In this document: positions 695 to 59,992 of the stretch, piece after piece
How positions within the stretch are numbered: the first letter of the stretch is position 1
How the letters are laid out: each line of letters opens with the position of its first letter
NCBI GenBank assembly: GCA_040285825.1
Contig: JAUPSS010000010.1
Coordinates: forward strand, 1,300,881-1,364,880
Direction: 5' to 3'
DNA: 64,000 nucleotides
From: Eukaryota sp. TZLM1-RC
Taxonomy: Eukaryota > Protista > Metamonada: BaSk clade
Position numbers and translations under genes: made by a program
The notes under the pieces: model-generated
Database searches by the model: none
Seen by the model: the letters and a program-made list of their open reading frames with translations, nothing else
What the model was told of the DNA's origin: nothing

Positions 695-740
695 ATATTG
701 GATTTTACAACAAAATTCCCTTTTTCAAACAACAGTCAGA

Positions 741-3908: not shown

Positions 3909-4056
3909 TGTTAGTCTTGAATAGTATTTATAGTTTATTTGTATAGTTTATTAGCATTCCGCCTATTAGTTTAAGAAGAGAGAATGCAATTCCTCTTTGT
4001 AATAAATTTCATTACTTTTCTACTGTATGTCTAACATTAACGAGCAAAGACCATCA
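3909..4056 (+). repeat. 5' LTR of element A
   Basis: Direct repeat of 17737-17884; TG..CA ends; AATAAA. Confidence 0.95.
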
Positions 4057-7000
4057 ATACGTATTGGGTCGTCCCCGGCTCAACGCAGGATCTTTGAGGA
4101 ACAGACTGGTCCCTCTTCCTCATCACTAACCACAGACCCAGCTTCCGTGCCCCCTTCTTCGGTAGAAGCTTCTGCGCTTCCTGAAGCAACTCTTTCTGAG
4201 GGTTCTACCCCAAGGGAAGACAGTTCCCTTCCTGAGGATTCCGTTCCAATGGAAAGAAGCTCCCCTCCTCGGGATTCCGTTCCTGTGGAAGGAGACAACC
4301 CCCCTAAGGATTCTATTCCTTCGGAAGGAAGAAGCCCTTCATTAGTCTCCTACGACGACGAAGAAGTTGAGGATTCCGTTGCTCCTCTCCCTCCTTCGCA
4401 ATTGAGGGCATCTGAAGTCCCACCTTCCCCTTCTACTCAAAACAGAGAGACTGTTCAACCTTCTCTCGCGACAAAGGAAGGATTGGAAGATCAACCCTCT
4501 TCCTCCCCTACAAAGGCCATTGAAGTACCATCTTCATCCCTTCCATCCAGTTCTGAGGTTCCACCCTCTCACTCTCAACAGCTTCTCCCTCCAGTTCCAA
4601 CTGTTAGGAGGAATATTCAAAATCCTGCTGTTCCAACTTCAGGATATCCTAACTTCAACAGTAAGTGGAGTTAATAATCTGTCTGTTTCCCCTTTCCAGG
4701 CTAGTGATTCCATTCCTAGCACTTCGAACCTTCCTTCGTATCTTTCTGAAGAACAAAGGAAAAGGTACGAACAAATCTTTTCAGATTTGGTAGAGTACGA
4801 AGAACCTCCCAAGGAATTCTCCCCTTTACCTCAACAGCAGGTCCCTCCTACGGCACCTCCATCTGAAATTGACAGAATTTCTGGTGAGGTCTCTAATAAA
4901 TATTTAGAGCTTTTCCTTCAAGAAAAACGAAACTGGGAACACAGAAAAAGACTGGATAGAGAGATTGAAGCTAGAAGAGGAACATCCTCTACACCTGCTC
5001 AACCTACCCCTTCTCAAGCTAGCTCCTACGCTAGCTCAAGTGTTCATCGTGGTGCTTCCCATCAGCACAATCTCTATGCCTGTTATAGGGATCCGCAAAT
5101 AATTCCAGACCCCGAAGCCATCCCTCCCACGGAGATGAGCAACGGGCGTCCTCCTTTCTTCGGCCCTAGAGTCGAAAATGACCTAGGATTATGGATCACT
5201 CCAAGGATTGGTCCATATCTCTCCGACGAAAGAATTACTCCGGAAAACACGAGACACGACCCTGAACCGACTCACGACCCAAGACCCGGAGTTAGGTTCA
5301 TGAGAACTACTCGAGAAGGAGTATTCAGACGCTTCGCTGGAGATGAAGAAACCTCTTCATAAATGCCTACAACCCTTGCCCCTACCCTAGGTTCAGCCCT
5401 GGGTACAACGCATCTCTCGATATCCTTATTGACAGAGATTATAGAACAGGGTGGTGGTTTACCGAAACCACATATGGTGAAAGACTCATCCTTTACGACA
5501 GACGTCCTGACCATATAGCTTCATATTGTGGTCCTGACCACAGAAGATCAGGCAATCTTCAAAGAGCTCTCCAGCTCGTCACGGTTTTCCCTGGATGCAT
5601 AGAATCCAGGATGTTAAAATGGGTCATGGTAGAAGGTCGCATTGAAAAGACACGCTTGGTTCAACCAGCGATCTCTTCATATCAGGTCCCAGCCCAGATT
5701 GAAGAGACAGAACCTTCTCCTGAACCTCAACCTCAACAGAGTGAAGCTCCATTTTCCTCCGCTCAACCTCCCGAATCATCACAACCTCCTGATCATCACA
5801 AACTGATTCACTTTCTACCACGGAAACCCCTAATCCCAACCAATCTGCTATGGAACAAGCCGACGACGACGTCATCACTGTGAGCAGTGAATCACCCACC
5901 CCCATCACATCTTCTGATGCAATACCTGCTCCCATCACTCCCGTTAGTCGAGCTCCTCAACCCCAACCTACACCTTCCATGACAGGTTCAACAACCTCCA
6001 TTTCCTCACATCAATCACCCTTCTCGGGCACATACGAAAGTAGCCTTCTTCTTTCTTCAATGATTGGATCAAGAGATCGAGATGACAGACGTAGGGATCG
6101 TCCTAAACGTCCATATCTTGAAGCTTCCGATTTGAGAGACGCTGATAAACTTCTAAAGTTTGTCAACAAATTCATTCTCTGGAGTCGTACCGACCGAGTC
6201 CTAAGAGAAACGAGAGGTAACGTTGAGGATCCAGCCCAGATAGCTCTAGCCAACGAAGTTGCCAGACTACGTGAAGAATTAGAACTAGCTAGAGAAGGTT
6301 CCCAACCATCGATCGATGAGTATTTTGGTGACATCACTGGAGAACCAGTTCACGAATGGGACTTGTTCCGTCAAGCCATGAGGATCAACCCCCGAGGCCT
6401 CGCTGAATGTGTCACCCCTGAGGTGCTACATGCGTTAAGATATCAAGGTGCTCACCTAGCTATTTCTTCTCCCACGGTCCCTACCCCAAGAGACGAACGC
6501 ATAATTTGGGCTCAAATTCTGAGAAGAACCCAATTCAGCAGACTGCATGAGGCTAATCGAGCTCTCCTCGCAACTAACATGGACTGGTCGGAAAGAGATT
6601 ATGGCAATAGATGGATTGACTTCATGGTCAACATCGGCAGAGTTCTGACTCGCTCCACTGCCATCCAAGAGTTTAGGGGCATCTCCCAACAATTGAGAAC
6701 ATTCTCCATAAGCTCCACTCCTCCAGCTGACAGACTTTCAGACTGGGTAGTTGCTACTCATGTCCTAGAAAGCATAGGAATTATCCCTATCAGAGACAGA
6801 CTCCTCAGGATCTGGTCCTCTCCTTCTCACTACTCATCTGATGGCCACACCCTTGGCGAATTCTTTAGTGTTCTCCAAATTGAATACGAGAATTTCTGTA
6901 ACGCCAGATCGTTCATGGAACAACTAAACCATGTCGATTTCACCTATCAGAACCAATTAAGTCACCAGCAGGCCTCTCACCGACCTCCCACGGTCGTTCC

Positions 7001-7439: not shown

Positions 7440-7481
7440 GAACAAGCCGACTTAAATGGACATGATTCTGATACAATTTTT

Positions 7482-9140
7482 ATGGTACAATCCATGCATC
7501 ACAATTGCCTACAATTAAACTTCTTGATCAACAATGTCGAAGTTAAAGGCATAATTGACTCTGGTGCAACATGCTCAGTAGTCACGGAAGACGTCATCAG
7601 TAATTGTAACATGGCACGTTCCAACGAAACCATATCATACAATATTGCTGTTGGAACTACCTCACAGTCCCTTGGTACTGCTTCTGGAACCCTTAGCATT
7701 AGACTAAAAAGTGTTACCCAGATTGTACACGTGAAACACAAGTTCAGCATCGTTCCTGGACATGAGACCATTCTCATTGGTGCTGACTTGTTGAGTCACC
7801 TTGGGCTGATGAACAACAAGGGCATTTATATTAGAATGGACGACGCCTGTCGTACATTACTATTACCTGAAGCCGAATTCGACCATCGAATATCGCAAGC
7901 TTCAGAAGTCGTCAACGTTTCCACACGTTGGTTGGAACACATCAACTCATCTGGTTGTACCATCGACCTCGTCAACGACCTTTTCAAGAAGTCCCTACTT
8001 CAAACTTTGAAAGAGTTCGAAGACGTATTTACCCTCAAGCCTCATGCTGAAGGTATTGATTGCCCTCCCATGGAAATCAACTTCTACAATGAAGACGTCA
8101 GAGTTAGAAGACCCCCCAGGACCCTGAATCCAGCCAGGCTAGAGGTCGCTAACCAAATTTTCGACGAATTCGTAGACTCAGGATTTGCTGTCCCATCGAA
8201 CCATGAGTTCAGCTCCCCTGTCTGTCTAGTGGTCTACCCAGATAACCGTAAGCCCCGCCTTACCGGTGATTATAGTGGCAAGGACGGAGTCAACGCCAAC
8301 ACCATTGCTGTTGAGCCCAACCTTCCAAGGATCTCCGACGTGCTGGTATTTCTCTCCCAAGCGAACTACATAGGCACCCTTGACCTCCTCAAAGCCTTTT
8401 GGCAACTCAAGATTGCTGAAAAGGATTGGCAGAAAACAGCCCTGAGCATTCCTGGCAAAATTATCATGTTCAAACGTGCAGCTTTTGGCCTCAAGAATGT
8501 CCCAGCCGTTTTCCAAAACGTCATGGCTGACATCTTCTTTAGAGACGGTGTCTTCATTTACATAGATGACATCATAATCATAGGTTCAACCTTTGACGAA
8601 TTCATTGAACGCCTCCGTCGCGTCCTTGATCAAGCCAGATGCAAAAGAGTTTCCTTGGGACTTCCAAAGTGCCATTTCGTGTCTTCCAGACACCCAATCA
8701 AGATACTGGGCAGTGTTTTCCAAAACAAACAACGGACTATCGATCCCACTCGCGTTGAATCTTTGTTGAATCTACCTAGACCAAAGACAATCAAAGACGT
8801 CCGCAGCCTCGTAGGATCAGTCAACTTTATTAGAAAATGGTTTCCTCAGGTATCTGAGCTCATCGCTCCTATGATCAGATTGACTAAGAAGGATGGAAAC
8901 AACTCCAACGTTAAACCCAGACCCCGCACGCAACGCCTTCAATGGACCGACATGCACGACGGACTCCTTCAAAAGATCAAACAACTGATAGCGAAGCACA
9001 TGCCGCTCAGCTTACCACCTCTGGAAAACCAAATTTTAATTAGTTGCGATGTATCCGACATAGCTGTAGGCGGCGTCATATGGGAACAATTAGAACAAAT
9101 CGACGACCCCGGTACCCCCCCTGATCAACAGGAAATCTAG
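7482..9140 (+). pseudogene. pol: pol of element A: aspartic protease, RT and start of RNase H
   Basis: IDSGA, LIGAD, LDLLKAFWQ, FGLKN, YIDD. Same frame as gag across a single TAA; frameshift at about 9120. Confidence 0.9.
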
Positions 9141-12100
9141 GCCTATCAGCTTCTTCAGCCGGTTGTTGACCAACTCGCAAAAGAACTGGCGAACAAACCA
9201 AAAGGAACTCTATGCCATCCTGCTCATGTTAACTCAAAGTGGTTTTGAAAACTACTTGAAAGGAAGGAAACTGGTCATATTCACAGACCATCAAAATCTT
9301 ACCTACATGTTCACAGCTCCTGAGAAGAACAGAATTGTAACTAGATGGTTACCCATATTCTCTGAATTCTGCTTCGATTTGGTACATACCGAAGGGGAAG
9401 ATAACTTCTGGGCTGATATGTTGTCTCGAATAGTTCCGCCTATAGACCATCAAGAGATCAATCATTTGTCCCATCAAATGTCTCCAAATTTTCATCCATT
9501 ATTTTACATCGATAAAATTGATGGAACAGAAGATGAAAGATACTACATCGAAGACTTAAACAACTTCGAACGTATCATGGTCATCAGAGAACGATGTTCC
9601 AACGACCTGCCTATTTTCGAGCCATGGCTCTGTAGGATTTGGTCCGAACAGAAGCTTGCCATAACTTCCAAAGACCCCTCTTTCAACAACTGTGTTCATA
9701 ACAATCATCTTGATTTATATATGACTCACAACAACAAGATAGTGATTCCCAGATCACTCATTAAGGACACCCTTAACTTGTTGCATGGACTTCTGCAAGG
9801 AGGCCTGAACAAAGCCTGAACAAGCTCAGGAACAGCGATTATTGGTGGCCAAACATGCTCACCGACATGAATAAGCACGTCCAAGAATGCCCCTCCTGTC
9901 AGAAAACTAAGCCAGTTCCCAAACTGCACGTTCCCCCAACCGGTTCATTGTGGGCTGACAGACCTTTTGCTCGCGTCAACGCCGACGTTATTGGTCCTCA
10001 CCCAGAAGATCAAGAAGGCTACAAATACATCCTCGAATTTATTGACAGCTTCTCTAGGTTCACGATCATCGTGCCTTTAAACGAGATAAATGCTAATCTT
10101 ACTGCAGATGCATTAATTCGGAAAGTCTGTGCCATCTTTGGTATTCCATTTCAAATCCACAGCGATAATGGACCCGAATTTTCCAAGGCTGTTTTTGACG
10201 AACTAAGCAAATTTTTAGGCATAGAGGTGTCAAAGTCAATTCCCAGGTTTTCTCAGTCCAACGGCTTGGTAGAGCGCCGACACAGAGACATCCTGCAAAA
10301 CCTGAGGAAATTGCTCGTAGACTTCAACGCCTACGATGTGTGGTCTGAATATTTGCCTTATGTGCAATTATTGATCAACTCCTCAAAGAGCTCAATAACC
10401 AACCACACTCCATACCAAGTGATCTTTGGCTCAGATGTGTCTCCCAGATCAGACCCTGGCAAAATTCTTGAAATCATTGAAAGCTCGACGTCTGAGTCAT
10501 CTTTTATTCAAGAAATTCAATCTAAATTTCGAAGGTTGAAAGAGAAACAGGAAAAGGCAGCACACCATGAAGCTTCCAAAGCTTCCAAGCTAACTAGATC
10601 GACAACTCCAAACCCTTTTGAAGTTGGTCAATTGATATTGAGAGCATCTGGGGGATTGGCAGAAAACAGCCCTGAGCATTCCTGTCAAAATTATCATGTT
10701 CAAACGTGCAGCTTTTGGCCTCAAGAATGTCCTTTGCCGTTTTCCAAAACGTCATGGCTGACATCTTCTTTAGAGACGGTGTCTTCATTTACATAGATGA
10801 CATCATAATCATAGGTTCAACCTTTGACGAATTCATTGAACGCCTCCGTCGCGTCCTTGATCAAGCCAGATGCAAAAGAGTTTCCTTGGGACTTCCAAAG
10901 TGCCATTTCGTGTCTTCCAGACACCCAATCAAGATACTGGGCAGTGTTTTCCAAAACAAACAACGGACTATCGATCCCACTCGCGTTGAATCTTTGTTGA
11001 ATCTACCTAGACCAAAGACAATCAAAGACGTCCGCAGCCTCGTAGGATCAGTCAACTTTATTAGAAAATGGTTTCCTCAGGTATCTGAGCTCATCGCTCC
11101 TATGATCAGATTGACTAAGAAGGATGGAAACAACTCCAACGTTAAACCCAGACCCCGCACGCAACGCCTTCAATGGACCAACATGCACGACGGACTCCTT
11201 CAAAAGATCAAACAACTGATAGCGAAGCACATGCCGCTCAGCTTACCACCTCTGGAAAACCAAATTTTAATTAGTTGCGATGTATCCGACATAGCTGTAG
11301 GCGGCGTCATATGGGAACAATTAGAACAAGTCGACGACCCCGGTACCCCCCCTGATCAACAGGAAATCTAGGCCTATCAGCTGCTTCAGCCGGTTGTTAA
11401 CCAACTCGCAAAAGAACTGGCCGACAAACCAAAAGGAACTCTATGCCATCCTGCTCATGCTAACTCAAAGTGGTTTTGAAAACTACTTGAAAGGAAGGAA
11501 ACTGGTTATATTCACAGACCATCAAAACCTTACCTACATGTTCACAGCTCCTGAGAAGAACAGAATTGTAACTAGATGGTTACCCATATTCTCTGAATTC
11601 TGCTTCGATTTGGTACATACCGAAGGGGAAGATAACTTCTGGGCTGATATGTTGTCTCGAATAGTTCCGCCTATAGACCATCAAGAGATCAATCATTTGT
11701 CCCATCAAATGTCACCAAATTTTCATCCAATATTTTACATCGATAAAATTGATGGAACAGAAGATGAAAGATACTATATCGAAGACTTAAACAACTTCGA
11801 ACGTATCATGGTCATCAGAGAACGATGTTCCAACGACCTGCCTATTTTCGAGCCATGGCTCTGTAGGATTTGGTCCGAACAGAAGCTTGCCATAACTTCC
11901 AAAGACCCCTCTTTCAACAACTGTGTTCATAACAATCATCTTGATTTATATATGACTCACGACAACAAGATAGTGATTCCCAGATCACTCATTAAGGACA
12001 CCCTTAACTTGTTGCATGGACTTCTGCAAGGAGGCCTGAACAAAGCCTGAACAAGCTCAGGAACAGCGATTATTGGTGGCCAAACATGCTCACCGACATG

Positions 12101-15100
12101 AATAAGCACGTCCAAGAATGCCCCTCCTGTCAGAAAACTAAGCCAGTTCCCAAACTGCACGTTCCCCCAACCGGTTCATTGTGGGCTGACAGACCTTTTG
12201 CTCGCGTCAACGCCGACGTTATTGGTCCTCTCCCAGAAGATCAAGAAGGCTACAAATACATCCTCGTATTTATTGACAGCTTCTCTAGGTTCACGATCAT
12301 CGTGCCTTTAAACGAGATAAATGCTAATCTTACTGCAGATGCATTAATTCGGAAAGTCTGTGCCATCTTTGGTATTCCATTTCAAATCCACAGCGATAAT
12401 GGACCCGAATTTTCCAAGGCTGTTTTTGACGAACTAAGCAAATTTTTAGGCATAGAGGTGTCAAAGTCAATTCCCAGGTTTTCTTAGTCCAACGGCTTGG
12501 TAGAGCGCCGACACAGAGACATCCTGCAAAACCTGAGGAAATTGCTCGTAGACTTCAACGCCTACGATGTGTGGTCTGAATATTTGCCTTATGTGCAATT
12601 ATTGATCAACTCCTCAAAGAGCTCAATAACCAACTACACTCCATACCAAGTGATCTTTGGCTCAGATGTGTCTCCCAGATCAGACCCTGGCAAAATTCTT
12701 GAAATCATTGAAAGCTCGACGTCTGAGTCATCTTTTATTCAAGAAATTCAATCTAAATTTCGAAGGTTGAAAGAGAAACAGGAAAAGGAAGCACACCATG
12801 AAGCTTCCAAAGCTTCCAAGCTAACTAGATCGACAACTCCAAACCCTTTTGAAGTTGGTCAATTGATATTGAGAGCATCTGGGGGATTGGCAGAAAACAG
12901 CCCTGAGCATTCCTGGCAAAATTATCATGTTCAAACGTGCAGCTTTTGGCCTCAAGAATGTCCCCGCCGTTTTCCAAAACGTCATGGCTGACATCTTCTT
13001 TGGAGACGGTGTCTTCATTTACATAGATGACATCATAATCATAAATTCAACCTTTGACGAATTCATTGAACGCCTCCGTCGCGTCGTTGATCAAGCCAGA
13101 TGCAAAAGAGTTTCCTTGAAACTTCCAAAGTGCCATTTCGTGTCTTCCAGACACCCAATCAAGATACTGGGCAGTGTTTTCCAAAACAAACAACGGACTA
13201 TCGATCCCACTCGCGTTGAATCTGTGTTGAATCTACCTAGACCAAAGACAATCAAAGACGTCCGCAGCCTCGTAGGATCAGTCAACTTTATTAGAAAATG
13301 GCTTCCTCAGGTATCTGAGCTCATCGCTCCTATCATCAGATGGAAACAACTCCAACGTTAAACCCAAACCCCGCGCGCAACGCCTTCAATGGACCGACAT
13401 GCACGACGGACTCCTTCAAAAGATCAAACAACTGATAGCGAAGCACATGCCGCTCAGCTTACCTCCTTTGGAAAACCAAATTTATAATTAGTTGCGATGC
13501 ATCCGACATAGCTGTAGGCGGCGTAATATGGGAACAAATCGAACAAGTCGCCGACCCCGGTACCCCCTTGATCAACAGGAAATGTAGGCCTATCAGCTGC
13601 TTCAGCCGGTTGTTAACCAACTCGCAAAAGAACTAACCGACAAACCAAAAGGAACTCTATGCCATCCTGCTCATGCTAACTCAAAGTGGTTTTGAAAACT
13701 ACTTGAAAGGAAGGAAACTGGTTATATTCACAGACCATCAAAACCTTACCTACATGTTCACGGCTCCTAAGAAGAACAGAATTGTAACAAGATGGTTACC
13801 CATATTCTCTGAATTCTTCTTTGATTTGGTACACACCAAAGGGGAAGATAACTTCTGGGCTGATATGTTGTCTCGAATAGGTTCCGCCTATAGACCATCA
13901 AGAGATCAATCATTTGTCCCATCAAATGTCTCCAAATTTTCATCCAATATTTTACATCCATAAAATTGATGGAACAGAAAATGAAAGATACTACATCGAA
14001 GACTTAAACAACTTCGAACGTATCATGGTCACCAGAGAACGATGTTCCAACGACCTGCCTATTTTCGAGCCATGGCTCTGTAGGATTAGGTCCGAACAGA
14101 AGCTTGCCATAGCTTCCAAAGACCCCTCTTTCAACAACTGTGTTCATAACAATAACCTTGATTTATATATGACGCACGACAACAAGATAGTGATTCCCAA
14201 ATGACTCATTAAGGACACCCTTAACTTGTTGCATGGACTTCTGCAAGGAGGCCTGAACAAAGCCTGAACAAGCTCAGGAACAGCGATTATTGGTGGCCAA
14301 ACATGCTCACCGACATGAATAAGCACGTCCAAGAATGCCCCTCCTGTCAGAAAACTAAGCCAGTTCCCAAACTGCACGTTCCCCAACCGGTTCATTGTGG
14401 GCTGACAGACCTTTTTGCTCGCGTCAACGCCGACGTTATTGGTCCTCTCCCAGAAGATCAAGAAGGCTACAAATACATCCTCGTATTTATTGACAGCTTC
14501 TCTAGGTTCACGATCATCGTGCCTTTAAACGAGATAAATGCTAATCTTACTGCAGATGCATTAATTCGGAAAGTCTGTGCCATCTTTGGTATTCCATCTC
14601 AAATCCACAGCGATAATGGACCCGAATTTTCCAAGGCTGTTTTTGACGAACTAAGCAAATTTTTAGGCATAGAGGTGTCAAAGTCAATTCCCAGGTTTTC
14701 TCAGTCCAACGGCTTGGTAGAGCGCCGACACAGAGACATCCTGCAAAACCTGAGGAAATTGCTCGTAGACTTCAACGCCTACGATGTGTGGTCTGAATAT
14801 TTGCCTTATGTGCAATTATTGATCAACTCCTCAAAGAGCTCAATAACCAACCACACTCCATACCAAGTGATCTTTGGCTCAGATGTGTCTCCCAGATCAG
14901 ACCCTGGCAAAATTCTTGAAATCATTGAAAGCTCGACGTCTGAGTCATCTTTTATTCAAGAAATTCAATCTAAATTTCGAAGGTTGAAAGAGAAACAGGA
15001 AAAGGCAGCACACCATGAAGCTTCCAAAGCTTCCAAGCTAACTAGATCGACAACTCCAAACCCTTTTGAAGTTGGTCAATTGATATTGAGAGCATCTGGG

Positions 15101-17328
15101 GGATTGGCAGAAAACAGCCCTGAGCATTCCTGGCAAAATTATCATGTTCAAACGTGCAGCTTTTGGCCTCAAGAATGTCCTTTGCCGTTTTCCAAAACGT
15201 CATGGCTGACATCTTCTTTGGAGACGGTGTCTTCATTTACATAGATGACATCATAATCATAGGTTCAACCTTTGACGAATTCATTGAACGCCTCCGTCGC
15301 GTCCTTGATCAAGCCAGATGCAAAAGAGTTTCCTTGAAACTTCCAAAGTGCCATTTCGTGTCTTCCAGACACCCAATCAAGATACTGGGCAGTGTTTTCC
15401 AAAACAAACAACGGACTATCGATCCCACTCGCGTTGAATCTGTGTTGAATCTACCTAGACCAAAGACAATCAAAGACGTCCGCAGCCTCGTAGGATCAGT
15501 CAACTTTATTAGAAAATGGCTTCCTCAGGTATCTGAGCTCATCGCTCCTATCATCAGATGGAAACAACTCCAACGTTAAACCCAAACCCCGCGCGCAACG
15601 CCTTCAATGGACCGACATGCACGACGGACCCCTTCAAAAGATCAAACAACTGATAGCGAAGCACATGCCGCTCAGCTTACCTCCTTTGGAAAACCAAATT
15701 ATAATTAGTTGCGATGCATCCGACATAGCTGTAGGCGGCGTAATATGGGAACAAATCGAACAAGTCGCCGACCCCGGTACCCCCTTGATCAACAGGAAAT
15801 GTAGGCCTATCAGCTGCTTCAGCCGGTTGTTAACCAACTCGCAAAAGAACTGGCCGACAAACCAAAAGGAACTCTATGCCATCCTGCTCATGCTAACTCA
15901 AAGTGGTTTTGAAAACTACTTGAAAGGAAGGAAACTGGTTATATTCACAGACCATCAAAACCTTACCTACATGTTCACGGCTCCTAAGAAGAACAGAATT
16001 GTAACAAGATGGTTACCCATATTCTCTGAATTCTTCTTTGATTTGGTACACACCAAAGGGGAAGATAACTTCTGGGCTGATATGTTGTCTCGAATAGGTT
16101 CCGCCTATAGACCATCAAGAGATCAATCATTTGTCCCATCAAATGTCTCCAAATTTTCATCCAATATTTTACATCCATAAAATTGATGGAACAGAAAATG
16201 AAAGATACTACATCGAAGACTTAAACAACTTCGAACGTATCATGGTCATCAGAGAACGATGTTCCAACGACCTGCCTATTTTCGAGCCATGGCTCTGTAG
16301 GATTAGGTCCGAACAGAAGCTTGCCATAGCTTCCAAAGACCCCTCTTTCAACAACTGTGTTCATAACAATAACCTTGATTTATATATGACGCACGACAAC
16401 AAGGTAGTGATTCCCAAATGACTCATTAAGGACGCCCTTAACTTGTTGCATGGACTTCTGCAAGGAGGCCTGAACAAAGCCTGAACAAAGCCTGAACAAG
16501 CTCAGGAACAGTGATTATTGGTGGCCAAACATGCTCACCGACATGAATAAGCACGTCCAAGAATGCCCCTCCTGTCAGAAAACTAAGCCAGTTCCAAAAC
16601 TGCACGTTCCCCCAACCGGTTCATTGTGGGCTGACAGACCTTTTGCTCGCGTCAACGCCGACGTTATTGGTCCTCTCCCAGAAGATCAAGAAGGCTACAA
16701 ATACATCCTCGTATTTATTGACAGCTTCTCTAGGTTCACGATCATCGTGCCTTTAAACGAGATAAATGCTAATCTTACTGCAGATGCATTAATTCGGAAA
16801 GTCTGTGCCATCTTTGGTATTCCATTTCAAATCCACAGCGATAATGGACCCGAATTTTCCAAGGCTGTCTTTGACGAACTAAGCAAATTTTTAGGCATAG
16901 AGGTGTCAAAGTCAATTCCCAGGTTTTCTCAGTCCAACGGCTTGGTAGAGCGCCGACACAGAGACATCCTGCAAAACCTGAGGAAATTGCTCGTAGATTT
17001 CAACGCCTACGATGTGTGGTCTGAATATTTGCCTTATGTGCAATTATTGATCAACTCCTCAAAGAGCTCAATAACCAACCACACTCCATACCAAGTGATC
17101 TTTGGCTCAGATGTGTCTCCCAGATCAGACCCTGGCAAAATTCTTGAAATCATTGAAAGCTCGACGTCTGAGTCATCTTTTATTCAAGAAATTCAATCTA
17201 AATTTCGAAGGTTGAAAGAGAAACAGGAAAAGGCAGCACACCATGAAGCTTCCAAAACTTCCAAGCTAACTAGATCGACAACTCCAAACCCTTTTGAAGT
17301 TGGTCAATTGGTATTGAGAGCATCTGGC
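8423..17328 (+). repeat. Four tandem ~2.23-kb copies of RT(C-half)-RNaseH-integrase
   Basis: Periods 2231/2230/2218-2228. Identical junction GAGCATCTGGGGGATTGGCAG at about 10650, 12880 and 15100. Confidence 0.95.
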
Positions 17329-17742
17329 TCTTCCGCTAAGCTTCATGGAGACTATTTAGGACCCTTCCTAATTACTGAAATCGTATCCAATTTGTCTGTG
17401 AATATTAAGAATCTCTGCACCGATACGATTGTCCAAGCTAGCGTCAAACATTTAGCACCCTGGCACTCCAGCTTACCCACCAACGATGAGTTCCACTCCT
17501 GGGTCGCTGCAGGTGATGTCGAAGAACACTTCATTGAAAAAGTGCTCGGTGACTTTTGCCAAGTGCAATGGCCTGGAAAAGAGATCACCACTGAACACGT
17601 GTCTACAGTCCAAAATACTGCCGCGTATAAAGACTTCATCAAGACTTCAAATGCACGTCGCCGTACTAATTCCAACGGTTCACCTCCTGTGACTAGAGCT
17701 TCCAGGGCTCGTCGCTCTAAAGAGAGGAAAAGGCAATGTTAG
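16531..17742 (+). CDS. Integrase core, GPF module and chromodomain-like C-terminus (last copy)
   Basis: CPSC, ADVIG, HSDNG, VERRH, GPF, EKVL..CQVQWPG. The stop codon lies inside the 3' LTR. Confidence 0.85.
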   Translation: MLTDMNKHVQECPSCQKTKPVPKLHVPPTGSLWADRPFARVNADVIGPLPEDQEGYKYILVFIDSFSRFTIIVPLNEINANLTADALIRKVCAIFGIPFQIHSDNGPEFSKAVFDELSKFLGIEVSKSIPRFSQSNGLVERRHRDILQNLRKLLVDFNAYDVWSEYLPYVQLLINSSKSSITNHTPYQVIFGSDVSPRSDPGKILEIIESSTSESSFIQEIQSKFRRLKEKQEKAAHHEASKTSKLTRSTTPNPFEVGQLVLRASGSSAKLHGDYLGPFLITEIVSNLSVNIKNLCTDTIVQASVKHLAPWHSSLPTNDEFHSWVAAGDVEEHFIEKVLGDFCQVQWPGKEITTEHVSTVQNTAAYKDFIKTSNARRRTNSNGSPPVTRASRARRSKERKRQC

Positions 17743-17884
17743 TCTTGAATAGTATTTATAGTTTATTTGTATAGTTTATTAGCATTCCGCCTATTAGTTT
17801 AAGAAGAGAGAATGCAATTCCTCTTTGTAATAAATTTCATTACTTCTCTACTGTATGTCTAACATTAACGAGCAAAGACCATCA
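17737..17884 (+). repeat. 3' LTR of element A
   Basis: Matches 3909-4056; preceded by PPT. Confidence 0.95.
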
Positions 17885-22305: not shown

Positions 22306-23533
22306 TGTTGGCGCCCCAAGGCTTATATAATATGATTAGAAAATAGATCAATTTTTCCTCATTGACTTTTCTTTACTACAATAGACTTTAGGCAACAATA
22401 ATTATTGGCCATTTTTAAGCCAAGGTATACCATTAATAATTCTAGCAAACTTCAACACTGAACCAGCAAGATATTTAAAACATGTCAGACATCTCAGAAA
22501 AGGATATCTCTGACATTCAGCCATCTTCATCCCTTCAAATGCAACAGGACCAGGAACAACAAACACAACATACACCTACACAAAATAAAAAGGAAAACGA
22601 GGCAATGGACCCGGCTCCCACGTCCACCTTAACAAAAGAAAATGACGAAGGAGTTGACGAAATCCCTCCTTCCACAAAAGTAGTTTCGGATGAAACTAGA
22701 TGCGGAACTAGATTCCACGTCTCTTTCCAAACCAAAGAACGAGGTCACGAAAACGGACCCGTCTCCCTCTCCCCTCGAGAAAAAGAGATTTGTTGACGGA
22801 AATAACGAGAACGGACCTGGTTCCCTCTCCCTTCCAAAATGTAGAATCTGTCAGTAAGGTAACGGATGAATATCCCACCTTAAACAAGTCGACCCCCTCA
22901 GGAGAGCATGATGAATTTTATGCTCAACTAGATGACAAGGGAAGATGACTCCAGTGATGGATTCTACAAACTCCTAACAAGGCTGCGGAGCCTTTCCTCG
23001 AATCAATGGACTTGTATCCATTCGAGCAGCTCTCTCGTTCACGGAGCCAAACACACAAACAAGTCGACTGCATACGAGGTGAAGAGTAGAGACTCCACCT
23101 CCACTATTATTGTACTACAATGCAAAGATACGGTCCTTGCTCCTCTGATATTTTTAGTCGTAAAACCAGTACTTTAACAACAACAGACGCCGCCTTCAGG
23201 TTTTTGAGGTTTGTTACTTTGCTTACTGTTGTTTTTGATCCAACATAGACCCTGCATGATCTTTAGGAATTCCATTCTTCAATTCCATGATACTTTTACT
23301 AAACAACACTACCACGTTACTCGTTTACGAAAAAGGGAAGAAGCAGAGCGTCTTTATGTAGCGATTAAAACATACACAACAAAGTATTCAAACACACAGA
23401 TCTTGGAACTAGGCCCTTTTCAGTTATTGCTTACTACCTTATACTAACATTATTGTAGGAGAGTCATAGTACATCAATTGTCGATCTTAAAATTGTGAAA
23501 CCAGTGTTTGTGTGAATCTTAATCACTACAAAG

Positions 23534-45520: not shown

Positions 45521-46623
45521 TGATGCCGTTAGGCAGATGAACACACGAAGGAGAGAGAGAAATCTGTTGTTTATTACTAAAACTGATTCATAAATGAGTA
45601 TCACGTCATCAGTCGAAATACAAAGAAACCTACTAATTCAATTTGAGTTCAACAACAACACTACTTTTTCCCACTTTTCTGAGGACAAATACAGTACTGG
45701 CTCAATAGAGGGAAGATATGGGGTTTGTTAAACTCTTTGGTGCATCGTTTGTGTGACACAAATAATTTACCTCATGTTTGATTTTAGATGGACAATCACG
45801 GGAGATGTGTCCAGGCTTGTGGCACTTGAAGCACGATTGATTTTTTAAATCCTGAGAGCGGCAAGAGGACCTCGTTTTAGTGCCAGCCGTACGTTCCACA
45901 TCATTCACTGAGGTTTTGAAACCACGAGTCCATGAAGCAACCCTAGAGCAGTCCAACAGCTCATCAGTAGTGGTTTCGACAAGAGAGTGAAGATCTGGGA
46001 ATACATCATCTCGAATTCTCGCTAGTAGAGAACGTTGAAGACCTACGGGAAGAATTCCTCTGGCAAATCGATTCAGAAAAGCTGTGTCTGGTAACTTCAG
46101 TCCGGAAGCCCTACTCTTTACCTGGAGGAAACGTCGCAGGTAACAGGACATACGTTCTCGGACGTCACCAATACGGACATCAAGCTTCAGTTCTGACATA
46201 GCCAGACTAAAATCTTCGTACGTGGCGAACGATACGACAGATTGAAGATGTCTAAGAAGAACATCGTCACTGGAAGAGACGTCGGATTTCTGGAGAGATA
46301 GGGACTCTAACAGAAAAGAATCGACCAAGAGTCTTGCTGGAACAAGCTCTTTCTTAGAAGTCACAGAAGAATAGATCTTCCACTCTTGTAGGAACAAGAG
46401 AACACTTTCAACTTTCATGGAAGAAAGAGACGGGAGGTTGACAGAAGGAACAGTCATCTGAAATAAGAAGGGCCAATAATTATTGATGCCGTTAGGCAGA
46501 TGAACACACGAAGGAGAGAGAGAAATCTGTTGTTTATTACTAAAACTGATTCATAAATGAGTATCACGTCATCAGTCGAAATACAAAGAAACCTACTAAT
46601 TCAATTTGAGTTCAACAACAACA
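45521..46623 (-). mobile_element. Gag-only mini LTR retrotransposon E1 (1103 bp)
   Basis: Identical 140-bp LTRs at 45521-45660 and 46484-46623; TSD CTAT; PPT AGAAAAGTGGGAAAAAG; single ORF. Confidence 0.95.
45702..46457 (-). CDS. gag: Intact compact Gag (251 aa) with CCHC zinc knuckle
   Basis: Capsid MHR-like segment (ERMSCYLRRF) and CFKCHKPGHISRDC; fills the internal region. Confidence 0.88.
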   Translation of the reverse strand: MTVPSVNLPSLSSMKVESVLLFLQEWKIYSSVTSKKELVPARLLVDSFLLESLSLQKSDVSSSDDVLLRHLQSVVSFATYEDFSLAMSELKLDVRIGDVRERMSCYLRRFLQVKSRASGLKLPDTAFLNRFARGILPVGLQRSLLARIRDDVFPDLHSLVETTTDELLDCSRVASWTRGFKTSVNDVERTAGTKTRSSCRSQDLKNQSCFKCHKPGHISRDCPSKIKHEVNYLCHTNDAPKSLTNPISSLY

Positions 46624-47348: not shown

Positions 47349-47541
47349 TGAGGCCTGTGACATAATGGTAACAGCAAAAAGGTAAGATAATTTATTGAAT
47401 TCCACTGGCCCTTATAAAGGCCATCACTAGTGAAGTATCTATGATAATAAATGTACTAGACTAACTGTCCACACTACAACACTACCTTTTCCCTCTCTTA
47501 GATCTCGTACGAGAGCTATCAGAATTAACTGCAGGGGAATT

Positions 47542-47687
47542 TGTTTTACTGTGGACAATTAGTCTAGTACATTTGTTATTATTGTTATTACTTAGACTTC
47601 ACTAGTGATGGCCTTTATAAGGGCCGGTGAATTCAATAAACTAATCCTTACTTTTCTTAACCGTTATCATATATGGATAAGGCATCA
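47542..47687 (+). repeat. Third, inverted LTR (F) related to the D LTRs, followed by leader/gag start
   Basis: TGTTTTACTGTGGAC...GGCATCA; shares CTTCACTAGTGATGGCCTTTATAAGGGCC with the D LTR. Confidence 0.8.
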
Positions 47688-47985
47688 TTAATTATCGGCT
47701 CGACAGGCCACAATGATAACTCACCTTCCTCACCAAGGAAGAGTATTGTCCCTTCTTTGAAGGAGAACAATTCCCCTCCACCAACGAATTAGTCTTAGAT
47801 TTAGAATCGGAATTCATTCTGCGTTTTCTGGTAGTGCGACGACCAAGGGTACGCAAATATGATTGGTATGCCTCAGTGCTTTTGATGTCAGCAACTAGGA
47901 CAAACGATGTCTCGCCGCCATACCAAACTGCGGTGCAATAAGGAATTTTATTATTATTCGAGTCTATAAAGTTGAAATCGACTAT

Positions 47986-49085
47986 TGTTGTTGTTGAACT
48001 CAAATTGAATTAGTAGGTTTCTTTGTATTTCGACTGATGACGTGATACTCATTTATGAATCAGTTTTATTAATAAACTCAGATTTCTCTCTCTCCTTCGT
48101 GTGTTCATCTGCCTAACGGCATCAATAATTATTGGCCCTTCTTATTTCAGATGACTGTTCCTTCTGTCAACCTCCCGTCTCTTTCTTCCATGAAAGTTGA
48201 AAGTGTTCTCTTGTTCCTACAAGAGTGGAAGATCTATTCTTCTGTGACTTCTAAGAAAGAGCTTGTTCCAGCAAGACTCTTGGTCGATTCTTTTCTGTTA
48301 GAGTCCCTATCTCTCCAGAAATCCGACGTCTCTTCCAGTGACGATGTTCTTCTTAGACATCTTCAATCTGTCGTATCGTTCGCCACGTACGAAGATTTTA
48401 GTCTGGCTATGTCAGAACTGAAGCTTGATGTCCGTATTGGTGACGTCCGAGAACGTATGTCCTGTTACCTGCGACGTTTCCTCCAGGTAAAGAGTAGGGC
48501 TTCCGGACTGAAGTTACCAGACACAGCTTTTCTGAATCGATTTGCCAGAGGAATTCTTCCCGTAGGTCTTCAACGTTCTCTACTAGCGAGAATTCGAGAT
48601 GATGTATTCCCAGATCTTCACTCTCTTGTCGAAACCACTACTGATGAGCTGTTGGACTGCTCTAGGGTTGCTTCATGGACTCGTGGTTTCAAAACCTCAG
48701 TGAATGATGTGGAACGTACGGCTGGCACTAAAACGAGGTCCTCTTGGCGCTCTCAGGATTTAAAAATCAATCGTGCTTCAAGTGCCACAAGCCTGGACAC
48801 ATCTCCCGCGATTGTCCATCTAAAATCAAACATGAGGTAAATTATTTGTGTCACACAAACGATGCACCAAAGAGTTTAACAAACCCCATATCTTCCCTCT
48901 ATTGAGCCAGTACTGTATTTGTCCTCAGAAAAGTGGGAAAAAGTAGTGTTGTTGTTGAACTCAAATTGAATTAGTAGGTTTCTTTGTATTTCGACTGATG
49001 ACGTGATACTCATTTATGAATCAGTTTTATTAATAAACTCAGATTTCTCTCTCTCCTTCGTGTGTTCATCTGCCTAACGGCATCA
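47986..49085 (+). mobile_element. Gag-only mini LTR retrotransposon E2 (1100 bp)
   Basis: Identical 139-bp LTRs at 47986-48124 and 48947-49085; TSD CTAT; gag from 48151 with a 1-nt A-run deletion near 48765. Confidence 0.95.
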
Positions 49086-49998
49086 CTATAATCTTAATAA
49101 TTACAGTTTGTTTATCTCCAGCAGCAATGTTCTTGTGCCAATGTATATTTTCCTTGGGGAAGTCAGAGAAATATAATTTACAATGATTAAAACTTGCCGT
49201 GGACATCGAACCAGTGAAAAGATTGTTGAGTATTATACTTTTATTGGATTTCACTTCTTCAATAAAGAAAGGGCCAGCGAAGCAACCATGGAGTTTACCA
49301 TTAGTTTTTTATCGCAAAACTAAGTCGCCTCTATTGAAAGGGTTCCTGTGTTTGTTTACTTCAGGAAGTTGTTGAGCTTGTCTGAACTCTGTCTCTTCTT
49401 TCTTATTTGAAATTCTTTCAAGTTTTGCTTCCAGATCTTTAACAAAAAGTATATCAACATCAGCTGATTTTATTAGTTCAAACATATAACTCGGATCAGC
49501 TCTAGGGCTGTGATCGCTACCAAACATTAAATTGTAAGGCGAATGACCAGTAACTCTACTAACAGTTGAATTAATTTGAAGTTGTACAATTGGAATATAT
49601 TCACTCTAATTGCAATAATCGCCAGAGTCCACCAAAATCTTTCTTAGACTTTGTAAAATGTCTCTGTGTTGTCTTTCTACTAAACCATTGCTTTGTGAAA
49701 AACTAGTTAGTGAACGACTTACTTCAATGTTTAATAAATCGCATAACCCTTTGAGTAATGCATTTGCAAATTCAATACCATTGTCACTATTGTTGCCTAA
49801 AGTCTACTGTAGTAAACAAAAGTCTGATTTATTTTCTATTCATATTATATAAGCCTTAGGGCGCCAACACTGCTTCTTCGCTGTTTCAAAATAAATCAGC
49901 TTATATGAATATGAAATAAAAACTATATACAAATAACGAAATAACTATAATAAATACATATAATCGATATAATATAAATAATCGATATAAACTAAGAA

Positions 49999-52923
49999 TT
50001 AGCTCCTCTTCCTAATTCTATTGCTGCGTCTAGGCTTCTTAGAAGGCGTAGACTCATTGGAGGTACCTTGTCGTCGACTAATGGTACGTTTTCCAATTTT
50101 CTTGTTATCCTTACTAAATAACTTATAAGCTTCTGAGTGTCTAACCGGATGGAGTGGCTCTTCTGTTGTCTCACCGCCAAACCATTGAACAGTACAGAAA
50201 CTACCTGAATCAGAGTGGTATTCTGAGAGGATTTTCTCTATAACGTGTTTTTCGGAATCGCCTGCAGCGACTGCTTTGAGAAGCTCAATGTCCTGTGGAT
50301 TTTCTGCGTTATAGATTTTGCAATCTTTCTTGGCAGCTTTTAATTCGGTGCCAGTAGTAAGATTCTTCAATAATAAAGTGGATTTGGATGGAAGGTCAGT
50401 AACTAAGAATGGTCCATTCCAAGATCCATGCAATTTATTATTTTGCTTGGTTTTACGTAAGACGTAGTCAGCAATATTAAATGCTATAAGACACGAATTA
50501 GTATTATCTACTGCAGACGGAGTATTTAATGTTTGGTGACGCTCTGCTTCTTCCCTTTTTTCTTGTAGACGAGTGTTTTTCATTTTTATGTCATCTAGTA
50601 AAGGGATATTAGTTTCAAATTTGGATAAATTTCCTAATATATTAGCAGGGTCTGTTCTTGGACTAATCGAAGAACCGTACATGAGTTCGTATGGGGTAAA
50701 ACCAGTTTTTCTGCTTTTAGTGGAATTTATTAACAGTTGGGATATAAGTACGTAGGTAGACCAATTTCCGTAATCCTTGAAATCTATTAATAGTTTCCTT
50801 AAGCATTGGAGAACGTCTCTATGTTTACGTTCTACAAGTCCATTACTTTCTGAATAGTGGGGAATTGAGTTACTCGTCTCAATCGCTAATCTGTTACACA
50901 CTATTTTAAAAGTCTCGTTGGCGAACTCAGGTCCATTATCACTATGAATTAACATAGGTATGCCAAAGATAGCGCAAACATTCCAAAATAAGGCATCTGC
51001 GGTTTTTAAGGCATTGAGTTCTTTTAAAGGGACTAAGATTGTATATCCAGTAAAAGAGTCTACAAATACTAAAAGATATTTAATTTCTTCGTTGTCGGAA
51101 TTTAGGGGTCCAATTTTGTCGACGTTTAATCTGGCAAAAGGACGATCTGCCCATAAAGATCCTGTGGAAGGTGTTTTTGATCTTTTAACTGGAGCCGTTT
51201 TTTCACAAGTTGGGCATCTTTTGACATGATTAATAAGGTCCTTTCTCATATTGGGCCAGTAGAAATCGCTTTTGGATAGTTTGTGTAAACTATCGTTTTT
51301 GCTAGGGTGACCAGATTGAACCAAACCATGTATTAATAGAAGTGCCTGTTTTCTGAGGCTCTTTGGAATCAAAATTTTGTTTTTATTATTTTTCCAAATT
51401 TGAGTATTTTCATCTAGAATTGCATTTTCAAATAACGAGTCGTTGTTGTTTTTGGCTATTTGTTGTTCAGATCTTATCTTAGAGAACCAAGAAGAAAAAA
51501 TAGGTAGGTCTTGGTGTCTACTTAGAGATGAGATTGATGGGATGTCTTCAAGATCCGAATCAGAATCATCGTCTAGTGGAGGTATCTCGTAATTTGAAAG
51601 TAAAGTATCTGGTATATTTATGCTACAAATAGAAGGAGTTTCCTCGTTTTGATCCAAATCAATATTCCTCGATAACATATCTGCCCAATGGTTGTCTTCA
51701 CCAGGTTCGTGGACTATGTCAAAGTCGAATTCAGATAGTATCGGCAGCCATCTCTTTACAATTCTATTTTTCTCTGGGGCTGTAGCCAGGAATGCAATGT
51801 TTTTGTGATCGGTGAAAATTGTTAAATGTCCAGTTAACAAGTAGCTTTCTAAACAACTTTCAGTTAAAATCAACAGTATTGCATATAATTCTTTTTGTAG
51901 GGTGGACCATTTTCTTTGTGTTTCTGTAAGTAATCTACTATAGAATGACAAAGGTTTCACTTTCCTTTTATTTAGCGGGGTTCCTGCAGAGGAGTAGGGT
52001 TCAATTTCTTGCCAAATAACACCTCCTACTGCTACATCTGAAGCGTCAGTACTTATCAATACTCGCTTGCCCGAAGCTGGTAATTCAAGGGGCATGTGGT
52101 TTACTATTAAGTCTTTTATTTGTTTTAAGTAATCGTCATGCTTGCTAGTCCATTTAATTATTCTGGGTTTTCCTTTAATTAGCTCGTTAATTGGAGCAAT
52201 TAATTCAGAAATACCTGGAAGCCAATCTCTAATATAATTTATGGATCCTACCAATGAGCGAACTTCTTTCACTGTTTTTGGTCTAGGGATTCTCATCAAG
52301 GCTTCGATTTTTTTCCTACTTATAAATCTAGTTTTATCCTGGAAGGTACTTCCTAAAATGTCGATAGGGTGTTTTGATGTTACGAATTTGCATTTACGTA
52401 AGCCTATATTTACACGTCTATTTCTGGCGCATTGGAGGACTCTTTGTAATCTCTTATAAAATTCTTCGAATGTCGTTCCAACTATTATGATATCGTCAAT
52501 GTATATGAAAACGCCATCTATTTGGAAAATTTCCATCATTACGTTTTGAAAAACTGCTGGGATGTTCTTTAATCCGAAGCAAGCTCTTTTAAACATGATT
52601 GACCTTCCAGGAATTGAGATTGATGTTTTCTCAATATCCTTCTCAGCAACTTTCATCTGCCAGAAAGCTTTTGGTAAATCAAGCGTGGCGATGTAATTTG
52701 CTCTACTCAAAAATTCTAATATATCACTAATCCTAGGTAGATTAGGCTCTACTGAAATCGTATGGGCATTAACTCCATCTTTACCACTAAAGTCTCCAGT
52801 TAACCTGGGTTTCTTGCCGTCAGGATATATAACTAAGACAATAGGAGAGCTGAATTTATAATTAGATTCAACTGCATAGCCCATTTCGATCAGTTCATCA
52901 AATATTTTGTTTGCTATTTCCAT
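49999..52923 (-). CDS. pol: pol of C: RT, RNase H, integrase and chromodomain-like domain
   Basis: LDLPKAFWQ, YIDD, TDASD, KELYAI, TDHKN, ADMLSR, H..GH..CPTC, D-D-E (VDKIG/HSDNG/VERKH), GPF, EKIL..CTVQWFG. Confidence 0.93.
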   Translation of the reverse strand: MEIANKIFDELIEMGYAVESNYKFSSPIVLVIYPDGKKPRLTGDFSGKDGVNAHTISVEPNLPRISDILEFLSRANYIATLDLPKAFWQMKVAEKDIEKTSISIPGRSIMFKRACFGLKNIPAVFQNVMMEIFQIDGVFIYIDDIIIVGTTFEEFYKRLQRVLQCARNRRVNIGLRKCKFVTSKHPIDILGSTFQDKTRFISRKKIEALMRIPRPKTVKEVRSLVGSINYIRDWLPGISELIAPINELIKGKPRIIKWTSKHDDYLKQIKDLIVNHMPLELPASGKRVLISTDASDVAVGGVIWQEIEPYSSAGTPLNKRKVKPLSFYSRLLTETQRKWSTLQKELYAILLILTESCLESYLLTGHLTIFTDHKNIAFLATAPEKNRIVKRWLPILSEFDFDIVHEPGEDNHWADMLSRNIDLDQNEETPSICSINIPDTLLSNYEIPPLDDDSDSDLEDIPSISSLSRHQDLPIFSSWFSKIRSEQQIAKNNNDSLFENAILDENTQIWKNNKNKILIPKSLRKQALLLIHGLVQSGHPSKNDSLHKLSKSDFYWPNMRKDLINHVKRCPTCEKTAPVKRSKTPSTGSLWADRPFARLNVDKIGPLNSDNEEIKYLLVFVDSFTGYTILVPLKELNALKTADALFWNVCAIFGIPMLIHSDNGPEFANETFKIVCNRLAIETSNSIPHYSESNGLVERKHRDVLQCLRKLLIDFKDYGNWSTYVLISQLLINSTKSRKTGFTPYELMYGSSISPRTDPANILGNLSKFETNIPLLDDIKMKNTRLQEKREEAERHQTLNTPSAVDNTNSCLIAFNIADYVLRKTKQNNKLHGSWNGPFLVTDLPSKSTLLLKNLTTGTELKAAKKDCKIYNAENPQDIELLKAVAAGDSEKHVIEKILSEYHSDSGSFCTVQWFGGETTEEPLHPVRHSEAYKLFSKDNKKIGKRTISRRQGTSNESTPSKKPRRSNRIRKRS

Positions 52924-53091
52924 TTTGCTGGGATTTAACCGTCTAGCAGGTTTGTGTACTATAGCATTCTCATCTCTAAAGGGGATTGTTAGAGGATTAC
53001 AATCGATTCCTTTTCTATTAGGAGTTTCACTAAAAACATCCCTGAATAATTTTAGTAGACTCGTTAATTTTAATTTATTATTACTATCATC

Positions 53092-53976: not shown

Positions 53977-54041
53977 ACGTCTACCACGGCCACCTCGGCC
54001 CCTTTCTACACTGCCTGTACTAGCAGGCGTCTCCTGATCTC

Positions 54042-59700: not shown

Positions 59701-59850
59701 TAGAACCCACAGGATTATGCGACTTTCTAAATATTCTTAATGGGTTTAGGTGTCTATAATTCGAATTTATTTTGCTCATTTTATAAATGGTATTGGTTGA
59801 ATTGTGTGTAAGGTTATTAAAAGATGTGTATTCATCTAATTAATTACTAC

Positions 59851-59992
59851 TGATGCCGTTAGGCAGAAATACCAAAGAAGTAAAGAGAGAAAAGAACATT
59901 TATCAATAAAGAAACCCGTTCTTCAACGAGTGCCACGTCATCAAGTGAAATCCTGAGATAACTACTAACCTTATTTATCAGTAACTATAACA
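59851..59992 (-). repeat. Solo LTR related to family E
   Basis: TG..CA ends; TSD CTAC at 59847-59850 and 59993-59996; shares the terminal TGATGCCGTTAGGCAGA and CACGTCATCA with E. Confidence 0.85.

Follow-up and report, generated by a model that had tools for sequence, protein, structure and literature searches.

A covarying palindrome in place of the tRNA primer site in Ty3/Gypsy elements of Eukaryota sp. TZLM1-RC, and a possible partner-primed start of reverse transcription

Reverse transcription in retrotransposons with long terminal repeats (LTRs) is normally primed by a host tRNA at a primer-binding site (PBS) next to the LTR. The stretch of 64,000 nucleotides from Eukaryota sp. TZLM1-RC analysed here (the 64-kb window, contig JAUPSS010000010.1) was found to contain a cluster of Ty3/Gypsy LTR retrotransposons in which a 12-bp palindrome, CA-N8-TG, occupies this position. 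The palindrome is very probably a pairing element. On the best, though still tentative, reading, an intermolecular RNA duplex formed by it in the packaged dimer and nicked by RNase H, by analogy with Tf1, might supply the primer.

The palindrome at the 5' LTR ends

An earlier note on this DNA had reported the palindrome after seven 5' LTRs, starting from the LTR-terminal CA, and this was borne out at all seven places, with LTR ends set by target-site duplications (TSDs) and empty sites. Counted from the LTR end, the centre of each 12-mer falls between +4 and +5. The palindrome is perfect after five of the seven 5' LTRs (A, B, C, E1 and E2), while one of six pairs is mismatched in D and two of six in F. 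The seven sites belong to four LTR families (A; B/C; E/G; D/F), not to seven. The sites and their 5' LTRs are as follows.

3909..4056, + strand: 5' LTR of A, 148 bp, TG...CA, TSD ATTA, 147/148 identical to the 3' LTR, with an empty site
4049..4052, + strand: 5' arm of the A outer stem, GACC (-8 to -5), with the 2-nt bulge after it
4055..4066, + strand: palindrome of A, CA-ATACGTAT-TG, at the PBS position
4067..4070, + strand: 3' arm of the A outer stem, GGTC (+11 to +14)
22306..22397, + strand: 5' LTR of B, 92 bp, same family as C
22396..22407, + strand: palindrome of B, CA-ATAATTAT-TG, outer stem GGC/GCC
46474..46485, - strand: palindrome of E1, CA-ATAATTAT-TG
46484..46623, - strand: 5' LTR of E1, a 1.1-kb element without pol, TSD ATAG, LTRs 140/140 identical
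47542..47687, + strand: F, a D-family LTR with a short leader, truncated and inverted within the 3' region of D, left end uncertain
47686..47697, + strand: degenerate palindrome of F; family contigs from public runs have a perfect CA-TTAATTAA-TG followed by GCCT
47986..48124, + strand: 5' LTR of E2, TSD CTAT, LTRs 139/139 identical
48123..48134, + strand: palindrome of E2, CA-ATAATTAT-TG
56875..56886, - strand: palindrome of C, CA-ATAATTAT-TG
56885..56963, - strand: 5' LTR of C, 79 bp, TSD ATAG, 78/79 identical to the 3' LTR; C sits in the integrase of D
62552..62563, - strand: palindrome of D, CA-TTAACTAA-TG, with a mismatch in one pair and GGC/GCT as outer stem
62562..62693, - strand: 5' LTR of D, TSD ATAT, 116 identities, 16 mismatches and 1 gap against the 3' LTR

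Two LTRs were recognised in six elements (A, B, C, D, E1 and E2), F being a truncated 5' fragment and G a solo LTR. The LTRs of B and C are 95% alike, those of D and F 78–88% and those of E1 and E2 99%; the Pol of C is 59% identical to the reverse transcriptase (RT) of A and 48% to that of D. The pol order in A and C is protease, RT, RNase H (RH) and integrase (IN), and the best solved relative, by a PDB match, is Ty3 Gag-Pol (E 1e-65). The TG...CA ends are fixed by 4-bp TSDs, with which empty paralogous sites agree for A and D, and a purine tract precedes the 3' LTR. Most TSDs have the pattern N-T-A-N (ATAG in both C and E1, CTAT in E2, ATAT in D, GTAG in solo LTR G), the exceptions being ATTA in A and CATG/CATA in B. 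The tetramers just inside the two LTR junctions are similar (ATAA/ATAC/TTAA; GTAG/GCAG/GCAA), so that LTR alignments run 1–3 nt past the true ends.

The palindrome was found at none of the seven 3' or solo LTR ends, all of which were checked. On both strands of the window a perfect CA-N8-TG starts at 12 of 8,674 CA sites, ten of these starts being the 5' LTR ends described here and two a single locus at 6307–6318; the background rate is about 1 per 4,300 CA sites. Covariation was assessed over six 5' LTR sites, or rows (E1, a near-copy of E2, was omitted), and is real, as the earlier note had proposed: both sides change in 5 of 10 pairs with 88% of cells paired, figures that are not a probability since the rows are related. 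One of 500 shuffles reaches the observed count, the shuffles giving 1.6 pairs and slid controls 0–2. The same note had described an outer stem covarying across a constant 2-nt bulge. Two of its pairs do change in a matched way, and the bulge, on one side only, is 2 nt long and reads AT or AA; the outermost pair, -8:+14, is one of the five that covary and is unpaired in four of the six rows. G-U pairs occur in the outer stem, and the core is exact. The one-sided bulge and the G-U pairs point, at the level of sequence, to pairing as RNA in preference to a symmetric DNA site or a circle-junction mimic.

In the window alone the D/F variant is a consensus of two damaged copies, put forward in the earlier note as a third form of the palindrome. 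Public-run contigs were aligned to 47335–47760, the informative ones coming from X1 and X2 (one sample). All contigs over 47695–47696 (X1 record 8, X2 record 9) read A and T there, giving CATTAATTAATG followed by GCCT, so that the guessed form is present in actual copies, and GCCT pairs fully with the upstream AGGC; X1 record 7 continues with the same letters. A D-like contig has TAATG and then GCTT, with the G-U pair kept. Three perfect cores are thus available, ATACGTAT in A, ATAATTAT in B, C and E, and TTAATTAA in F-family contigs, which differ at +1/+8 and +4/+5. Among the matches listed, run contigs over C contain no variant within 56875–56886; contigs aligning over the C palindrome come from runs other than X4, and those over the D/F stretch from runs other than X3. 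The loose end of one X1 contig at 47369 belongs to a further LTR family that ends in CATCA and continues with TTA, three bases of its primer-site region being visible. Separately, a second palindrome, GGTATACC, is common to B (22422–22429) and C (about 56853–56860), some 25 nt beyond the LTR.

Primer signals, precedents and lineage

In the account of PMC6317226, the primers described for LTR elements comprise whole tRNAs as well as half tRNAs and self-primers of the Tf1 type. A canonical tRNA-end PBS was not found at the seven sites, in agreement with the earlier note: TGG lies at +9, not within about 5 nt of the LTR, and beyond about +12 the sequences are no longer conserved, not even between members of one family. 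The same note had seen no complement of the site inside the LTRs, and indeed a Tf1-type complement of about 11 nt is missing in all seven elements, the longest match being 4–6 nt by Watson-Crick pairing and 5–8 nt with G-U. An RNase H domain is present in pol, for which a Tf1-like cleavage role is only predicted. No tRNA gene occurs within the window.

The closest precedent, and the one report so far of PBS-less elements with a palindrome, is the Conserved Hairpin Site (CHSeq1/CHSeq2) of the fungal GalEa elements of the Ty1/Copia superfamily (Donnart et al. 2017, PMC5445492), and in this respect the novelty claimed in the earlier note was overstated. As described there, a PBS is missing from GalEa elements, and its place is taken by a palindrome (CHSeq1) that consists of the LTR-final A and the next 9 nt; the downstream partner, CHSeq2, is the inverse complement of CHSeq1 and is itself absent from some of the families. 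For 5 of 8 elements a larger hairpin was predicted, bulged at the LTR junction, and in that account the authors found that no described model fits, the dimerisation initiation site (DIS) of retroviruses and Tf1 being partial analogies only. The two main GalEa variants differ by G-to-A and C-to-T, the A/T form occurring in low-GC families (14 at 20–40% GC against 25 at 35–55%; PMC5445492), and may derive from repeat-induced point mutation (RIP) rather than from covariation.

The elements of the window share with GalEa a palindrome that includes the LTR-final A and the next 9 nt, replaces the PBS and has the same centre (+4|+5). They differ in their Gypsy domain order, which places them outside the Ty1/Copia clade of GalEa, in their likely metamonad host, and in the length of the palindrome, 12 bp with the whole CA against 10 bp as described for GalEa, where the extended site may be longer. 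A conserved CHSeq2 is lacking: even the closest downstream sequence is mismatched at 1 base in B, at 2 bases in F, at 3 in C and at 4–5 in E2, D and A. In contrast to GalEa, three cores with transversion-type compensatory changes that RIP does not explain are found, together with a bulged outer stem. What is new here is the Gypsy lineage, the compensatory changes beyond RIP, the bulged outer stem and the absence of CHSeq2; the kind of site itself is known from GalEa. The full-text literature searched, which leaves out most subscription journals, yielded no account of a Gypsy element whose PBS is replaced by a palindrome, nor of a dimer-priming model. Loosely similar inverted repeats are mentioned for bivalve terminal-repeat retrotransposons in miniature (PMC6934838, as far as its account extends), SM-Tcn1 is described as having no identifiable primer site (PMC2864245), and the novel priming proposed for Cryptococcus Tcn2-5, as cited in the account of PMC7175516, could hold a Gypsy precedent.

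As for the lineage, among 120 listed relatives of the RT-RH of C the best 37 are labelled Eukaryota sp. TZLM1-RC, GEM-RC1 or TZLM3-RCL. 'Skoliomonas sp. GEMRC' is listed among free-living metamonads in PMC11316075, the main text of which contains neither 'LTR' nor 'retrotranspos'. The host is thus likely to be a skoliomonad-type protist, a free-living relative of Giardia. A quick tree, rooted at its midpoint, was made from 61 rows with no named Tf1/sushi reference among them; the rows labelled as skoliomonad had been reduced to 16 database proteins and C, and any row that covered fewer than 370 query residues was left out. In this tree these Pols and two chromodomain-bearing proteins (P0038 and P0041; PF00385) form one branch with support 100, which is long and far from the other matches. 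The tails of A and C have no Pfam Chromo match, and the alignment of the C tail with P0038 (E 5e-6) reaches into the start of the chromodomain there. This suggests a chromodomain remnant in the lineage, as the self-priming Tf1/sushi and Tcn1 chromoviruses have a chromodomain.

Distant matches added little. Viral contigs gave one locus at 25% identity, and a second alignment against viral contigs and one against prokaryote genomes gave none; metagenome contigs gave 12 loci, the best segments being 19–43% identical. In a self-BLAST of these 13 loci LTR-like pairs appeared in few, with no CA-N8-TG at the pair ends among those listed, the loci being too distant to speak for this clade. A single motif match in a viral contig lay in an unrelated phage structural-gene region and was put down to chance.

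A proposed partner-primed reverse transcription and its rivals

LTR-element RNA is described as packaged as a dimer, and the RNase H of Tf1 as cutting an RNA duplex to give an 11-nt self-primer (PMC7175516, in its account); palindromes are likewise described as driving dimers of Ty1 (PMC6844567) and Ty3 (PMC11381356). By analogy, two packaged genomes could pair head to head through CA-N8-TG (12 bp) and a stem of 3–4 bp past the 2-nt bulge, and the RNase H of RT would nick one strand within the palindrome as it does in the Tf1 duplex. The freed 3' end, which would carry the U5 end of the nicked strand and the first bases past the LTR, would be paired just past the LTR of the partner with U5 ahead as template, and so could prime minus-strand strong-stop DNA. 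The spacer behind the purine tract is a constant 3 nt, Y-A-R, which suggests an extension of 2–3 nt and would put the nick after +6 or +5. Plus-strand copying of this primer, halting near the bulge, would rewrite the 3' half of the palindrome as the complement of the 5' half in each cycle; because the rewriting would stop near the bulge, the core would be exact and the outer stem tolerant of G-U. The bulged bases belong to the integrase end (CAWCA), and their unmatched state may also avoid an internal inverted LTR end.

Tf1/Tf2, Tf1/sushi and Tcn1 resemble the present elements in being Ty3/Gypsy, with a chromodomain where these have a putative remnant, in lacking a tRNA PBS and, on the proposal above, in a primer of about 10 nt from a duplex nicked by RNase H. 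They differ in that Tf1 takes its primer from the initial 11 nt of the very transcript that is copied, whereas here the only complement is the palindrome itself, which could be used solely on a second RNA; the TSD is 4 bp here and 5 bp in Tcn1. Position, palindromy, compensatory change and the absence of a Tf1-type complement are observed, while pairing at the RNA level, the preference for a dimer over a hairpin, nicking, priming and regeneration are inferred. The preference for a dimer comes from the covarying +4/+5, which a hairpin cannot pair, and from the fact that a cut in the monomer hairpin leaves no template and a nick in the dimer does.

The predicted energies bear on this preference only in part. 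Homodimers of 24-mers from A, B, C, E1 and E2 reach -19.6 to -26.5 kcal/mol (p 0.003–0.017 against base shuffles), and the hairpins of these five perfect copies -3.8 to -5.3 kcal/mol; monomer folds of 80 nt are unremarkable (z +0.85 to -1.67). The hairpin appears in monomer folds predicted, in a 70-nt context, for A, C, E2 and D. On such modelling, monomer hairpin and dimer are not separated thermodynamically.

Several points weigh against partner priming. Of 400 random windows, 72 match the dimer gain of A in a 70-nt context, 22 that of B, 14 that of C and 17 that of E2, and the gain is average for the degenerate D and F; a 3' LTR control of C scores equally (12/400), and the lowest-energy dimer of C retains the hairpin and pairs through GGTATACC instead. 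The earlier note had taken the central pair as an argument for a dimer: +4/+5 do covary, but this is a single event, A against the rest, and the dimer gain is modest in the 70-nt context. Only four LTR families of shared ancestry are at hand, and the quick tree does not join the clade to any named self-priming clade. No fold-back joint (LTR, palindrome, inverted LTR) was seen at the C or F palindrome among the run contigs listed, in which rare forms are lost. Finally, nicking and priming are proposed by analogy with Tf1.

Two further sources of a primer were set aside. Priming by the transcript's own 3' end leaves +4/+5 unexplained, AATAAA-like signals, with a presumed poly(A) role, being located about 30–60 nt inside the LTR end. 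Hepadnavirus-like priming uses a protein, and no terminal-protein domain was found in the proteins of the window for such a start at the bulge.

It may be that the palindrome serves only dimerisation or packaging, like PAL1/PAL2 of Ty1 and PAL6 of Ty3, and that the primer is something else. All the covariation seen fits a pure dimer duplex equally, and these palindromes and the retroviral DIS are likewise self-complementary RNA near the 5' end able to join genomes, with dimerisation described for Ty1 and Ty3 in the accounts already cited. They adjoin and coexist with an intact tRNA PBS, whereas here the palindrome replaces the PBS, overlaps the integrase attachment end and takes into its duplex the exact primer bases beside the LTR end; no other conserved site occurs at +13 to +25. 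A role confined to dimerisation is unlikely, though it deserves to be kept in view.

Alternatively, an intramolecular bulged hairpin, with a 4-bp stem, a 4-nt loop, the outer stem and perhaps a U5-leader stem, could position RT or yield the primer, as was proposed for GalEa. Besides the hairpins in the monomer folds, the predictions show distal U5-leader helices, different for each family, in E2, D and F, where 59, 31 and 18 of 2,000 leader shuffles are as good. They are not significant in A, B and C (1168, 1574 and 389 of 2,000), and the cognate distal pairing is surpassed by another in A, B and E2 and only shares first place in C, so that this stem is suggestive in three of six rows, not specific, and is not claimed. 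The hairpin itself is weak, the 80-nt folds not being significant; a cut in its loop would give a 3' end without template, the +4/+5 covariation is left over, and a conserved CHSeq2 partner is wanting, as only B comes within one mismatch. A hairpin in this role is unlikely.

A half tRNA cut in the anticodon arm, as in Bianca (half tRNA-Ile) or Osser (half tRNA-Met), could prime with the palindrome being incidental. Positions +5 to +11 fit an anticodon-loop complement in all six rows, by a generic test of loop anatomy, the anticodon being AAU for A, B, C and E2; PMC6317226 reports that Bianca is primed by half tRNA-Ile, and Bianca, Osser and FunCo1 share with these sites a PBS sequence not starting with TGG and the partial anticodon-loop fit. 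However, a wobble at U33 is needed in every family, sister families need different anticodons (D and the run contigs have A at +8), and there is no conserved pairing beyond about 9 nt: the next 10 nt, for which pairing with the same tRNA is expected, are not alike in B, C and E2. Nor does this reading explain why +1 to +4 track +5 to +8, and among plant elements the account in PMC6317226 gives half-tRNA primers only in Copia. Half-tRNA priming is disfavoured by these sequences and appears decidedly improbable.

The earlier note had also suggested that the site acts as double-stranded DNA, as a symmetric protein site or an integrase mimic of the CA-N8-TG LTR-LTR junction. The dyad is perfect including its centre, and the two inner tetramers resemble the target-site pattern N-T-A-N, counted in four of seven TSDs. 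Against this, any symmetry past 12 bp is shifted, by 2 nt and on a single side, G-T is tolerated, the right arm lacks the TGTT start of the real LTR end, and a cleavable integrase site within the element would be expected to be harmful; a DNA site is disfavoured and very improbable. Pairing of an intact tRNA 3' end (CCA) with TGG at +9 to +11, followed by an 8-nt cDNA extension, is most improbable, for although TGG is found in five of six distinct rows and in the run contigs, it is explained by pairing to the invariant C-A-W-C-A LTR end, and the sequence after it varies even within B/C and D/F, whereas a PBS copied from tRNA is restored in each cycle. Chance together with common ancestry, a single ancestral palindrome kept for unrelated reasons, has the small number of families and the AT-rich sequence in its favour, and is scarcely credible given the background rate, the matched change of two core and two outer pairs and the appearance of the predicted third variant in independent copies.

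Neighbouring sequences and significance

The remaining features of the elements are as follows.

7440..17742, + strand: pol of A, with protease, RT, RNase H and integrase, frameshifted, RT-RH-IN in four tandem copies
17737..17884, + strand: 3' LTR of A, preceded by a purine tract and CAA
27453..27544, + strand: 3' LTR of B, 87/92 identical
45521..45660, - strand: 3' LTR of E1
47349..47481, - strand: 3' LTR of D
48947..49085, + strand: 3' LTR of E2
49791..49869, - strand: 3' LTR of C
50002..53091, - strand: pol frame of C, 1030 aa, with RT (YIDD), RNase H, integrase and a degenerate chromodomain-like tail
59851..59992, - strand: solo LTR G, E-like, TSD GTAG, with no palindrome after it

In A, the four RT-RH-IN copies (8423–17327) are about 2,230 bp each and 96–99% alike, and the LTRs differ at 1 base; the array reflects either true amplification within the element or an error of long-read assembly. 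E1 (45521–46623, - strand) and E2 (47986–49085, + strand) are 1.1 kb long, 99% identical and pol-less, with identical LTRs and separate TSDs, and are recent non-autonomous insertions that retain the palindrome; a gag-like frame in E1 includes a zinc knuckle. In the nested stack at 47349–62693 (- strand) an old D contains C, which interrupts the D integrase, as well as E2, the solo LTR G and F in inverted form. Run contigs depart from the window sequence at 47548, which suggests that F joined the 3' region of D at a short match to the LTR start.

Outside these elements, an intronless protein tyrosine phosphatase gene is present at 690–1628 (+ strand), a separate fragment of an RT, presumably LINE-like, that matches RVT_1 over the full length at 20907–21743 (- strand), and hAT transposase fragments lie within B at 23731–24902 (- strand). 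Two long frames at 29360–43964 (- strand; 3,308 and 1,485 aa) carry 6–7 tandem repeats of 1,026 bp (342 aa) with an Ephrin-receptor-like/TNFR-like cysteine module, and probably represent a single gene for a giant surface protein that a frameshift has divided.

A partner-primed start that joins dimerisation and priming in one step, and that arose more than once, in metamonad Gypsy and in fungal GalEa Copia elements, in the same register, is conceivable and is put forward with still more reserve than the mechanism itself. The natural compensatory variants, including the central pair, in another superfamily and another supergroup, are what the GalEa case lacked, and with them an unexplained motif becomes open to a sharp test, since on this model two RNAs complementary to each other should prime in trans only. 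If the proposal is true, it would represent a tRNA-independent priming route that links dimerisation to initiation and would avoid silencing by tRNA fragments, and annotators would gain a signature for PBS-less elements.

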